Shown: positions 3,392 to 56,465 of the stretch, one piece after another
Position numbering within the stretch: position 1 is the first letter of the stretch
Layout of the letters: every line of letters starts with the position of its first letter
Source of the DNA: Rhodothermales bacterium
GTDB lineage: Bacteria; Bacteroidota; Rhodothermia; Rhodothermales; VXPQ01
Length of the DNA: 64,000 nucleotides
Direction of reading: 5' to 3'
Assembly: GCA_965116435.1 (NCBI GenBank)
Contig: OZ220686.1
Location: forward strand, 2,036,054 to 2,100,053
Notes under the pieces: generated by a model
What the model saw: the letters and a program-made list of their open reading frames with translations, nothing else
The model's database searches: none
What the model was told of the DNA's origin: nothing
Made by a program: the position numbers and the translations under genes

Positions 3392-3428
3392 GGATGCGCT
3401 GATTACGTCCACTGCGACCAGCGCGTCT
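3392..3428. repeat. 37-bp palindromic repeat unit (solo copy)
   Basis: GGATGCGCTGAT-13 nt-ACCAGCGCGTCT, preceded by TCAA, between convergent genes. Confidence 0.75.
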
Positions 3429-6539: not shown

Positions 6540-6575
6540 GGATGCGCTGATCAAGCCCACTTCGATCCGCGCTGG
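6540..6575. repeat. Degenerate copy of the 37-bp palindromic unit
   Basis: GGATGCGCTGATCAAGCCCACTTCGATCCGCGCT matches the units at 56292 and 40950. Confidence 0.75.
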
Positions 6576-6630
6576 CTGCGCGCGTGCTCATTACGCGGGG
6601 TCGCCCCCCCCGAGGCGCCTGTTCTGGACC

Positions 6631-21038: not shown

Positions 21039-21090
21039 GGATGTTCTGATTAAGGATACTCTGATTAACTTCGCAAAGATCAGAGTATCT
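21039..21090. repeat. 37-bp palindromic unit (21054-21090) preceded by a 15-bp partial copy
   Basis: GGATGTTCTGATTAA followed by GGATACTCTGAT-TAACTTCGCAAAG-ATCAGAGTATCT. Abuts the DUF3224 stop codon. Confidence 0.8.
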
Positions 21091-40670: not shown

Positions 40671-40693
40671 GCATGCGCTGATCTTTGCGGACG
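40671..40693. repeat. Half copy of the 37-bp unit
   Basis: GCATGCGCTGATCTTTGCGGAC is the reverse complement of the loop plus arm seen at 40816 and 21068. Confidence 0.55.
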
Positions 40694-40800
40694 TACGCGG
40701 AGTATCTTTCCTGCGGCGGCGCGACGTGCATTTTCTCATGCGTCAATGCTTCCGCCCTTCTGCGGTTCCGTTTCCACCCTATATTCACCCGTATATTCAA

Positions 40801-40986
40801 GGATGCTCTGATTAAGTCCGCGAAGATCAGAGGCAGCCAGCGTGCTCCTCGATGCCTCCCGAAGGGCGCTTCACGAAACCGACGACGCAAAACGCCGGGG
40901 TTTCCGATGATTTCAACGATGAAATCATTACAAACGCTATGTGCGTACGTGAAGCGCTGATCGAAGTGGATTTGATCAGTGCATCC
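40801..40986. mobile_element. 186-bp non-autonomous element (MITE/REPIN-like)
   Basis: Terminal IRs GGATGCTCTGATTAA / TTGATCAGTGCATCC. TCAA on both flanks (40797-40800, 40987-40990). Inverted second copy at 56292. Confidence 0.88.
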
Positions 40987-41043
40987 TCAAGATGTCCGCC
41001 GCGTTGCGGGCAAGAATCGGCTACGCCGCGAAACCGAAGCGAC

Positions 41044-46863: not shown

Positions 46864-46900
46864 GAATGCTCTGATCGAAGTGGAGTTGATCAGTGCATTC
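46864..46900. repeat. 37-bp palindromic unit (solo copy)
   Basis: TCAA-GAATGCTCTGAT-CGAAGTGGAGTTG-ATCAGTGCATTC-TTAA. Confidence 0.85.
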
Positions 46901-53853: not shown

Positions 53854-56277
53854 TTAATCCAACCCCACCCCAACCCCCACAACAACCCGCGAACCCGGAA
53901 TATCTTCCGAACCTCCAAGACGGCGCGCGATGTCCAGGCGGAGGGGTGTACCTGCGATCCGGGTTAAAGAAACCCCTATTTCGTGCACGGACCGATCCCC
54001 GCAATATCCTGGGGGCATGCAGAAAAATACGCCCCGGTCCGGCGCCGCAGGCTGCCCCTGGATGCGCCCGTGCGCCCCGAACAGGGCAAGGCCCATGCGT
54101 ACCCGCACCAGCGGCCATAACCGAACCCATTCGAAGGGAAGCGTCGTAAAGTCGTGCCGCCAGAACACGACGGCGTAGCGCATCCCTTGCAAGGGCCGTC
54201 CGTGCAGAGAACGAAACGCATCCTGCCGATTCACCCGAAGGCCATCGAACAATTCGAGTCCGGTATCGAGCAGCGCCGTTCGGTGCGGCGGAAGATCGCC
54301 GAAGGACGTACGCCCCTGTAAACGGATATGCAGGTTTGCGGGCGTCGGGCGATATCTATGCAGGGTGGGCTGCGCCATAGCAATATGTCCGCCCAGCAAG
54401 GTATAGGCCACCTCGCTCGCCAGCCCCCCGGAAGAACCATGCTCCATCCGAAGCGCGGCGGAGCGAATGGCCCGGCCCTCCCGGACGGGCACGGAAAGCG
54501 TGGCGTACGCGGACCGGAACGTACCGTCCCCAATCGCCGGATTGTCCCGAAAATCCTGCGAATACGGCCAGGAACGCGTCGCTTGCCGCGCCGCCGAGGT
54601 TGCTTTCTCCTGCGCAAGGCCCGCCGTGAGGCGCCATCCCCGCCATGCGGTTTCTGCGCCCAGTCCGTACCGGGTTCGGCGAAAATAATCGAAATAATCC
54701 CGCCCTCCGAGGCTGGCCTGCACCGAAACGAGCGCGTCGCCGTACCTGGATCCCACGCCCTGGGGGGCAATGCCCCGGTCGTGCGAAACCCGAAGCAGGC
54801 TGCGGGCGCCAAGCGGGATCGTTAGCGCAGCGTACCTGTGGATCTTCCGTTGCTTGCTCGCCTGGCCCAGGCGCCATGCCAGACGCATGCCGGAAAACAG
54901 GTCCAGTTCGTTGCCGACGCCGCTGAACAGGCCCTCCACCCGATTGTACCGGAACCGAAACCGGTATCCCATGACCAGGGGCCATTGCAGCCGACCGGGC
55001 ATGTCCGGGTCCAGAAATCCGACAAACGACCCCTTGCGTCGTTCGACGGGAAATGCCTCGTCCAGCGTCAACCGGGCGGCGTTCAGGTCGGCCAGCGCGT
55101 CCAGTTCGCGGGCCGTCATGGGCATCAGCACTTGTCCGTATCGAAACGCCGGATCGCGCCAGGGCACGGTTGCCGAGGCAAACTGCTCCGGGGCAACGTC
55201 CATGCGGTGCCCGACGAGCAACGTACGGCGCCGGAACGACACCGTGCGCAGCCGATGCGCATTAACGGCGGTGCGAAGCGTGCCTTCGAGATCGAGGTTG
55301 ACCGGCGCCCAGAAACCGTTGGCTACCTCCCGAAAATGCTGCACGTACCGAACGTTCCAGCCGGACGTGGGCGGGGGAAACGCCACATGCCGCGCCGGAA
55401 AAAGCCGGGCTTCCAGCAAGACGAACTCCTCGTCCAGCACGGATAGTTGCCCGATGAAAGTCGCTTCTTCCTCGCCGATGGGCGAAACGTTCAGGTCGTA
55501 GATGGCGCGCCCGTCCAGCATCCGCTCCGCAGCCACCCGAAAAACGTAGTGTTTCAAGGCGTCGGGGTGGGTCGGCCCGATCATCCGTTGCCCCTGAACG
55601 GTCACGAAATCCTCGTACAGGTTCGCTACGTCGTGCGGGGCGGGCAAGGGCAAGGCCTCGTCCCACGCCCCTGTTCGGCTTACGGCGCTTACCGCAACGC
55701 GGGCGTCGCGCGGCGCACGGGCCGTCCGTCCGGCGTCGCCATACAGCCACAACAGGTCGAACACGGTATCGCTCAAATGCACGATGCGATCTCCGCGCTC
55801 CAGCGTCATGCGGGTCTGGCCCGCCACGCCCAGCGAAGTAATGTCCGCAAACATGCGCTGCTTGCGGCGAATCACTTGCTCCATCAGGCCGGAAGCGAAC
55901 CCCTCGCCCGACACCAGCACTTCTTCCAGCGGAATCACCGTGGGCGTCAGCCGGATAACGAGCGCTTCCGACCTGTCTGCGGGCACGGGAACTGCGCGAG
56001 GAGCATATCCAAGGTGCTGCACGACAAGCGCCTCGGCGCGCACAGGCAATTCGAGTACAAACCGCCCTTCCGCGTTCGTAATGGCGCCGCGCTCCATATC
56101 TTCCGTGAAAACATGCGCTCCGGACAGCACGGCGCCGGTCTCCGCATCCTCCACCACGCCCCCGATGCGCACCTGCGCGGCGGCAGGCCCGGCAGCCAGC
56201 AAGAGCAGAAAGATACAGGATGCCCTGACCAAGTCCACTTCGATCAGCGCTTCGCGTACGCGAGTACAAACCGTCAT
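53854..56277 (-). CDS. Outer-membrane protein with CarboxypepD_reg-like domain (DUF5686-like)
   Basis: Signal peptide, GVVEDAETG...TNAEGRF...LGY, RYNRVEGLF, beta-strand-rich C-terminus. Confidence 0.78.
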   Translation of the reverse strand: MTVCTRVREALIEVDLVRASCIFLLLLAAGPAAAQVRIGGVVEDAETGAVLSGAHVFTEDMERGAITNAEGRFVLELPVRAEALVVQHLGYAPRAVPVPADRSEALVIRLTPTVIPLEEVLVSGEGFASGLMEQVIRRKQRMFADITSLGVAGQTRMTLERGDRIVHLSDTVFDLLWLYGDAGRTARAPRDARVAVSAVSRTGAWDEALPLPAPHDVANLYEDFVTVQGQRMIGPTHPDALKHYVFRVAAERMLDGRAIYDLNVSPIGEEEATFIGQLSVLDEEFVLLEARLFPARHVAFPPPTSGWNVRYVQHFREVANGFWAPVNLDLEGTLRTAVNAHRLRTVSFRRRTLLVGHRMDVAPEQFASATVPWRDPAFRYGQVLMPMTARELDALADLNAARLTLDEAFPVERRKGSFVGFLDPDMPGRLQWPLVMGYRFRFRYNRVEGLFSGVGNELDLFSGMRLAWRLGQASKQRKIHRYAALTIPLGARSLLRVSHDRGIAPQGVGSRYGDALVSVQASLGGRDYFDYFRRTRYGLGAETAWRGWRLTAGLAQEKATSAARQATRSWPYSQDFRDNPAIGDGTFRSAYATLSVPVREGRAIRSAALRMEHGSSGGLASEVAYTLLGGHIAMAQPTLHRYRPTPANLHIRLQGRTSFGDLPPHRTALLDTGLELFDGLRVNRQDAFRSLHGRPLQGMRYAVVFWRHDFTTLPFEWVRLWPLVRVRMGLALFGAHGRIQGQPAAPDRGVFFCMPPGYCGDRSVHEIGVSLTRIAGTPLRLDIARRLGGSEDIPGSRVVVGVGVGLD
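56218..56262. repeat. Partial repeat element inside the 5' end of the 53854-56277 CDS
   Basis: GGATGCCCTGACCAAGTCCACTTCGATCAGCGCTTCGCGTACGC closely matches the start of the 56292 element. Confidence 0.85.
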
Positions 56278-56291
56278 GATTCCATGGTTAA

Positions 56292-56465
56292 GGATGCACT
56301 GATCAAATCCACTTCGATCAGCGCTTCACGTACGCACATAGCGTTTGTAATGATTTCATCGTTAAAATCATCGGAAAACACGGCGTGTTGCGGCGTCGGG
56401 GTTGTGAAGCGCCCTTCGGGGGGCATTGCGAAACGCGCAAAGCCCGGAAACCGGCTGCCGCATCC
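56292..56465. mobile_element. Second, inverted copy of the MITE/REPIN-like element
   Basis: Near-identical to the reverse complement of 40801-40986 over about 135 bp. Ends GGCTGCC-GCATCC with the inner 25-nt hairpin absent. Confidence 0.85.

Follow-up and report, generated by a model that had tools for sequence, protein, structure and literature searches.

Probable orphan IS5-type MITEs in a Rhodothermales genome and the origin of their 37-bp palindromes

Upstream of ribD in a Rhodothermales genome there is a 186-bp element with TCAA on both sides, whose two ends resemble 37-bp hairpins that also occur alone at other positions in the 64,000 nucleotides analysed here (the window). The locus raises the questions of what moved the element, and of whether the 37-bp palindromes are mobile units in their own right or are what remains of something longer. 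A sequence-only reading took the repeats to be a non-autonomous family with IS5-group affinities and some likeness to REPINs, and suggested that a 37-bp end might be a minimal mobile unit. The units that it listed, the 186-bp element, the TCAA flanks, the central palindrome and an inverted copy are all present in the window sequence (Table 1).

Copies in the window and in the genome

The arm motif GGATGCNCTGAT occurs 37 times in the window with two or fewer mismatches, compared to 20.7 expected, and none of 100 shuffled sequences reached this number. An idealised perfect unit (a 12-bp arm, 10–16 nt, and a 12-bp arm) has no exact match in the window, and all of the window copies thus have arm mismatches. 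Two of the solos are good palindromes, with single-strand DNA folds of -9.7 kcal/mol (z -4.7) for 46864–46900 and -9.6 kcal/mol (z -6.7) for 21054–21090, the latter with GGATAC arms. The two end units of the 186-bp element fold at -6.3 kcal/mol (z -2.05) on the left, where pairing of the hairpin arm is limited to 7 bp, and at -8.9 kcal/mol (z -4.0) on the right. The window copies are all intergenic and the neighbouring genes are supported by Pfam, the supported neighbours being miaB-like, tRNA-Gln, ribD, Fic, ABC-2, a CarboxypepD_reg protein and an FAD oxidoreductase.

Table 1. Members of the repeat family and their component parts in the window
Feature	Position	Strand	Basis or remarks
186-bp element	40801..40986	-	deletion derivative of 253-bp MITE
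Target duplication TCAA	40797..40800 (left), 40987..40990 (right)		sequence; single TCAA at G008/G010 empty sites
Left-end unit of 186-bp element	40801..40838	+	terminal repeat, TAAGTCCGCGAAG, degenerate inverted inner arm
Right-end unit of 186-bp element	40950..40986	-	terminal repeat, CAAATCCACTTCG, inner arm (minus-strand reading)
Internal AT-rich palindrome ATGATTTCA-ACGA-TGAAATCAT	40907..40928		sequence
Degenerate solo adjoining tRNA-Gln	40671..40706		motif search
37-bp solo palindrome in spacer of ABC-2 permease and Fic genes	46864..46900		GAATGC arms; flanks TCAA, TTAA
52-bp insertion (15-bp partial terminal repeat and 37-bp solo)	21039..21090		flanks GTAT, TTAT
Degenerate solo filling 63-bp spacer of convergent genes	3392..3428		sequence
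Degenerate solo	6540..6576		sequence
74-bp truncated copy (right-end unit and ~37 bp)	56218..56291	+	ends at TTAA, abuts 56292..56465
174-bp inverted copy	56292..56465	+	two further deletions

The window belongs to a genome (G000) assembled as a single contig of 3.07 Mb with 60% G+C. A BLAST census with one full copy identifies 193 loci, with both loop types among the solos, distributed evenly round the chromosome and covering 25.4 kb (0.83% of the genome). When each arm is paired with the nearest inverted arm genome-wide, the pairs fall into sharp size classes: 59 are 36–38 bp apart (the solos), 60 are 249–257 bp apart (the full copies), and there are three at 186 bp, four at 57 bp and four at 155–168 bp; from these classes we conclude that the master form is 253 bp. 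The full copies (61 in this comparison) have a mean pairwise identity of 92.4% and a maximum of 99.2%, and no two of them are identical. At each end of the master is a ~19-bp terminal repeat (GGATGCNCTGATYAARTCC), followed by 6 nt and a degenerate inverted copy of the first 12 nt, and it is this inverted copy that gives each MITE end the look of a hairpin; only one of the two arms of a unit has the full 19-nt repeat. The different loops that had been seen on the two units of the 186-bp element each go with one end of the full element, and a loop in reverse complement is a unit in the opposite orientation, nothing more. Twenty solos in the genome match the exact pattern, whereas the same pattern read backwards has no match.

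Alignment to a full copy shows that the 186-bp element is the 253-bp master with 67 bp of internal sequence removed and GCTG(C) microhomology at the junction; two further 186-bp copies elsewhere in the genome have the identical junction. The two-ended element is a deletion derivative and not the basic form. The end with the CAAATCC loop sits at 40986, so that the minus strand of the window corresponds to the strand that folds in the full copies (see below). In the inverted copy at 56292–56465 one of the two additional deletions is internal and the other removes precisely the left-end stem-loop, joining GCTGCC to GCATCC, and the flanks of this copy are unmatched (TTAA versus CAAG). Most of the conserved core is deleted from both the 186-bp and the 174-bp copies. 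The centre of the internal palindrome is TTAA or TTGAA in full copies, like the preferred target.

Among copies of at least 140 bp, 83 of 84 lie outside genes as predicted by a crude codon-usage gene caller. A test of intergenic location by open frames was dropped as useless at 60% G+C, where open frames of 150 codons or more cover 97% of the genome. The copies are not biased in orientation with respect to the flanking genes: in tandem spacers 23 point the same way and 24 the opposite way, and convergent spacers contain 19 and divergent spacers 17. The smallest recognisable members are 22-bp 'zero-loop' palindromes in which two 12-nt termini overlap by 2 nt (e.g. G000:C1:314300-314321, and about 1389-1410 of L233 in G010). 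We also note a 2.2-kb duplication with 96.7% identity (G000:C1:576697-578902 and 1898479-1900684), each copy of which ends at a solo, the loops of the two solos being different. Four public sequencing runs, all from one study, contain the region, but their short-read contigs stop at copies of the repeat and are thus silent on variants in presence, absence or size.

Target duplications, empty sites and a probable parent insertion sequence

Exact 4-bp duplications flank 28 of the 60 full copies (mean 2.35 and maximum 8 in shuffled pairings), 18 of the 59 solos (mean 1.3 and maximum 6) and five of the 13 intermediates, and flanking repeats of 3 or 5 bp are nearly absent. The duplicated sequences are varied (TAAA, TTAA, CTAA, CATG, TCGA and others), are 77% A+T, and follow a YWWR rule.

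Empty orthologous sites were sought, and were found for both the 186-bp element and the 52-bp insertion that includes a solo. Upstream of ribD the element is absent from all ten congeners with readable sequence, in which a ~50-nt box ending in ...CCGTATATTCA is followed directly by the congener's own leader; in G008 and G010 the sequence is ...TATATTCAACC, with a single TCAA. The 52-bp insertion sits immediately after the stop codon of the neighbouring gene, and the site is uninterrupted in G001, G007 and G003; the other seven congeners are unalignable at the junction and some have other family members nearby. G003 lacks the solo at 3392 and has a spacer of 11 nt at the matching position. Loss of Fic/ABC-2 synteny in the congeners makes the site of the solo at 46864 uninformative for presence or absence.

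Two of these regions have other features of note. The ~50-nt box upstream of ribD (TTCTCATGCGTCAATGCTTCC...CCGTATATTCA, window 40729–40795) is kept in all ten of the congeners read and may be a promoter or leader; the 186-bp copy is placed between it and the ribD start, and there is no Rfam match to an FMN riboswitch in the window. At the spot beside tRNA-Gln (40671–40706), a perfect solo with the other type of loop is present in G003 (L131), and in G004 a contig ends inside a longer copy (L132). This spot may be a hot spot, or a single old insertion that has been remodelled.

No transposase for the family is encoded in the window, as had been remarked, and the absence extends to the whole genome. 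We searched it with profiles PF01609, PF13586, PF01797 and PF00665, and the first three of these, which include DDE_Tnp_1 and Y1, have no match. With the G003 transposase (below) as query, the best tblastn match in this genome has an E value of 0.66, and a DNA search of it with the corresponding insertion sequence gives only a single 44-bp match. The rve-type transposases that are present belong to an unrelated element of 1045 bp and were rejected as a source; this element has TGT...ACA ends and two identical copies (G000:C1:252599-253643 and 1270118-1271162), and no other insertion sequence was seen to be perfectly repeated in the genome.

A transposase flanked by the same ends is found in two congeners. 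A PF01609 search of the genus identified an IS5-family insertion sequence, present as 13 copies (1171 bp) in G003 and 14 copies (1181 bp) in G002, with ends GGATACTCTGATCAATCC and GGATACTCTGATT(T/A)A..., and exact 4-bp duplications at 11 of the 17 copies that have both ends. Its transposase is 315 aa long, matches NF033581 (transpos_IS5_4, IS5 family) at 334 bits, and contains both PF01609 and PF05598; a scan of the genome collection revealed fragments of a transposase of this type in two more congeners. The terminal repeats of the MITEs in the window's genome have GGATGC where the insertion sequence has GGATAC, and the GGATAC form is present exactly in the window solo at 21054 and in the MITEs of most congeners. 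The termini co-vary within each copy (at terminal position 5, AU in 36 and GC in 11). The MITE is present in all 11 congeners at 76–84% identity, and in none of seven other genera of the family.

The full element thus has ends matching those of the insertion sequence, the same duplication length, a size of 253 bp, many copies, an interior unrelated to the insertion sequence and no transposase coding capacity, as expected of a type II MITE, which shares only its terminal repeats with the autonomous element. With IS5-group ends and an IS5-group target rule but no enzyme, the family in this genome is an orphan, and the MITE copies were presumably mobilised in trans by the transposase of the congeners. 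Taken jointly with the explanation for the solos that follows, it is very likely that the repeats are one family of IS5-type type II MITEs whose transposase survives only in congeners. This bears out the sequence-only reading of a non-autonomous IS5-group family with 4-bp targets, given the YWWR-like duplications and the IS5-family parent in two congeners.

A second IS5-family element, in G001, G007 and G008, was considered as a parent and set aside because its ends differ. It has (T)AGGGCCTGTTAACACTA ends and a T run in the middle of its reading frame (L020, G008:C1:634780-638154; L022; L027), and in G008 it is inserted within the end of a family member. The draft genomes of G007 and G001 have many copies of the MITE core with identical model scores and no cognate transposase was found in them, which could reflect either recent mobilisation or loss of the insertion sequence from draft assemblies. 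A search of a plasmid collection in distant mode with the 186-bp element gave no match.

Origin of the 37-bp solos

The genome contains a graded series of deletion forms with microhomology at their junctions. The four 57-bp copies have two different crossover points, showing that the same deletion has recurred. In the commonest class of left-loop solos (7 of 18) the bases are those expected if the two outer repeats of the MITE were joined, and exact duplications are present in six of these seven. In the commonest class of right-loop solos (13 of 38) they are those of the right-end hairpin of the MITE itself, with the terminus restored, and duplications are kept in two of the 13; this class does not represent a simple crossover product, since crossover in the 5-bp ATCAG core does not predict it. 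There are 20 exact-pattern solos in this genome compared to 0–7 in ten congeners, and up to three loci have an identical 37-mer.

Comparison of two sister species, G008 and G010, provides a more direct view of how these sites change. Flanks are 84–92% identical between the two, and we examined ten of their 12 exact-pattern solos (six of seven in G010, four of five in G008), nine of which are informative; the exception is G008 solo L246, for which the G010 region is rearranged. In five instances the sister species has no element, three of these being precise empty sites with duplications of TTTA or CCAG; two solos are shared, in one instance the element is larger in the sister, and in one it is smaller. 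At one site a 110-bp form flanked by TATA duplications in one of the species is matched by a remnant of 22 bp in its sister. A second example is L242/L254, where one species has a ~128-bp element between copies of a 12-bp direct repeat (GATCAGAGTATC) and its sister has a clean 37-bp solo, and a third is L249/L260, where there is a solo in one and a ~9-bp remnant in the other. Because elements change size in place at orthologous sites, the solos need not have moved as solos, and the five of nine sites that are empty in the sister fit direct insertion of a solo as well as they fit insertion and then collapse. In one of the shared solos (L244:401-437 in G010, L256 in G008) the 13-nt loop is inverted between the sister species, which could mean that the loop flipped inside the palindrome or that a unit was inserted again at this site.

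A simple scheme is that a DDE transposase acting in trans would cut elements and paste them into YWWR sites with a 4-bp staggered cut, as the 4-bp duplications suggest, and that with the transposase lost here the orphan copies would drift and shrink. Deletions between short direct repeats within the element would generate the 186-, 155–158- and 57-bp forms, and a deletion between the outer repeat of one end and the inner arm of the other would leave a solo palindrome of exactly 37 bp retaining the original duplication. Further loss from solos would then give 22-bp and smaller remnants. Most solos would accordingly be collapse products, arising in place or during gap repair, and not self-transposing units; collapse in place is probably their main source.

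The idea that the 37-bp palindrome is a minimal mobile unit, with back-to-back terminal repeats moved by an IS5-type transposase and the 253-bp element a composite that captured DNA, has several observations in its favour. Exact 4-bp duplications at 18 of 59 solos, where 1.3 are expected, are readily explained by it, as are the lineage-specific solos L240, L241 and L243 with their precise empty sister sites and the 37-mer found unaltered at up to three loci; the inner arms of the MITE resemble decayed terminal repeats, and the commonest right-loop class differs from the simple crossover product. However, none of these events needs movement of a solo, and insertion of a longer copy with subsequent collapse explains each site equally. 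Collapse is observed directly at three orthologous sites, deletions are recurrent at microhomologies, and the full 19-nt repeat is on only one of the two arms. Moreover, transposase-bound ends that are 37 bp apart are hard to bring together on one duplex. We therefore regard a minimal mobile unit as unlikely, and the probability left over by this reading and by collapse in place we assign to a mixture of the two, with solos arising by both collapse and their own movement.

Other explanations fare less well. Many short intergenic imperfect palindromes, some of them paired, are what would be seen if REP/REPIN-like sequences were spread by a RAYT (Y1) transposase, or if these were palindrome-associated elements of the IS200/IS605 type, but Y1_Tnp (PF01797), which is matched in 6 of 14 control genomes, has no match in this one, single-strand Y1 transposition does not produce the variable 4-bp duplications or the precise empty sites, and the ends match those of a DDE element of the IS5 family. 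The kinship to REPINs and RAYTs raised by the sequence-only reading is thus not upheld, with no Y1 transposase and real target duplications, and such an origin seems extremely improbable. Alternatively, the units could have a host function, as regulatory hairpins or small RNA genes (for example terminators or protein-binding sites), and owe their spread to duplication and not to transposition; the units fold stably, one of them fills a 63-bp convergent spacer, and the full element has a covarying fold. This too is very improbable, given the target duplications and empty sites, the lack of orientation bias relative to flanking genes, and the lack of any terminator-like or sigma-70-like site found in the element. 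Collapse of longer MITE copies is the reading that we prefer for the solos.

The covarying core and relationships to known repeats

Alignments of the MITE, first with one copy from each of ten species and then with 50 copies drawn from 12 species, show far stronger conservation in its right half than in its left. GTCATTCCTCATT and CTTCGTCATTCCTTGCCAGCG hardly vary, and changes in the predicted internal helices are compensated in the pairing partner (e.g. UA 31 / GC 15; CG 27 / AU 17; UA 30 / CG 18; GC 35 / CG 6 / AU 4). At 42 internal pairs, counted with the terminal repeats left out, 97.2% of cells are paired, compared to 92.1% in 500 shuffles and 35–50% when partners are slid by 1–3 columns. 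Changes on both sides are present at 16 pairs (7.0 shuffled, 3–7 slid) and in 92 cells (26 shuffled, 4–13 slid), and none of the 500 shuffles reached the observed value for any of the three counts. There are 193 G-U pairs versus 18 A-C cells, which indicates better folding of the strand that starts at the CAAATCC end than of its complement; this excess is partly built in, as the structure was predicted on that strand. For the four best helices the numbers are 62 and 17, with 49 of the 62 at one invariant pair. In a 107-nt 3′ domain a hairpin lies between two invariant GUCAUUCCU stretches, and two invariant GTCATTCCT stretches flank a small hairpin (e.g. L005:30-228, G000:C1:234260-234458). We considered GTCATTCCT as a shared transposase site, but it is absent from the parent insertion sequence and this role is not obvious.

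A covariance model of the 107-nt domain finds matches in this genome and in all ten congeners searched, and in none of 140 other genomes of the order; the fold occurs in hundreds of copies across this one uncultured genus. Rfam, which was also checked, has no match for the family: the only Rfam matches in the window are three tRNAs, and the best for a full MITE copy has an E value of 2.9. A scan of a full copy identified no sigma-70-like promoter and no intrinsic terminator. From the modelled fold, it is possible, if somewhat doubtful, that the full MITE carries a strand-specific structured RNA of ~200 nt kept by selection, which would be a new class aiding either persistence of the element or the host; the 37-bp palindromes would then be the remains after loss of the RNA cargo. 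Alternatively, conservation of the core may result from selection on the DNA for transposition, or its pairing from DNA-level conversion between inverted arms, which would also keep complementarity; persistent G-T positions mildly disfavour conversion.

Several known repeats are similar in some respects. REPINs and REPs are 20–40-bp palindromes, single or in inverted pairs, that are intergenic, confined to one lineage and associated with RAYT transposases. The palindromes here are alike in size and arrangement, but there is no RAYT gene, and there are target duplications and DDE-type ends. Correia, ERIC, RUP and BOX are MITEs with stably folding transcripts, in which the fold derives mostly from the palindromy of the element itself, unlike the internal helices described here, which are apart from the terminal repeats and show compensatory changes across 12 species. 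MITE transcripts with stable secondary structure are noted in a review (PMC10969869).

The closest likenesses (PMC4596501) include BrickBuilt and MITE293/700 of Porphyromonas gingivalis and the Neisseria ATR (ISNme1), IS5-family type II MITEs that, like those here, are non-autonomous, intergenic and multicopy and share only terminal repeats with IS5-family insertion sequences; the Porphyromonas MITEs, as here, belong to Bacteroidota-related hosts. As described there, however, these MITEs have a resident insertion sequence, variable duplications and a minisatellite interior, whereas here the genome and most congeners lack the insertion sequence, the duplications have a regular length of 4 bp, the ends are near-hairpins, which theirs are not, and the interior is a covarying fold. 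The review PMC10969869 describes QMITE1 and QMITE2 of Coxiella burnetii, which range from full length down to 39 bp, with truncated copies that are more REP-like than MITE-like. Decay of a MITE into short palindromes is common to both systems, although relative to that description there is here one discrete product (37 bp, with two terminal repeats) in ~59 copies, which often retain the duplications, collapse can be followed between sister species at orthologous sites, and the parent family is different. A literature search of main texts identified no account of the family, nor of any MITE from this lineage. This is a real, well-defined repeat family of an established kind, set apart by hairpin-like ends that collapse into discrete 37-bp palindromes, by orphan status in most of the genus and by a covarying fold.

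For annotation, the family accounts for ~0.8% of the genome and marks places where short-read assemblies break. Should the covarying core prove to be a real RNA, it would add a rare example of structural selection on the interior of a MITE. The genus holds all stages of the process: an active insertion sequence (in G002 and G003), orphan MITEs, a deletion series, REP-like 37-bp palindromes and near-erased remnants. As orthologous sites show the transitions directly, the origin of short palindromic repeats from transposons is testable within one clade.
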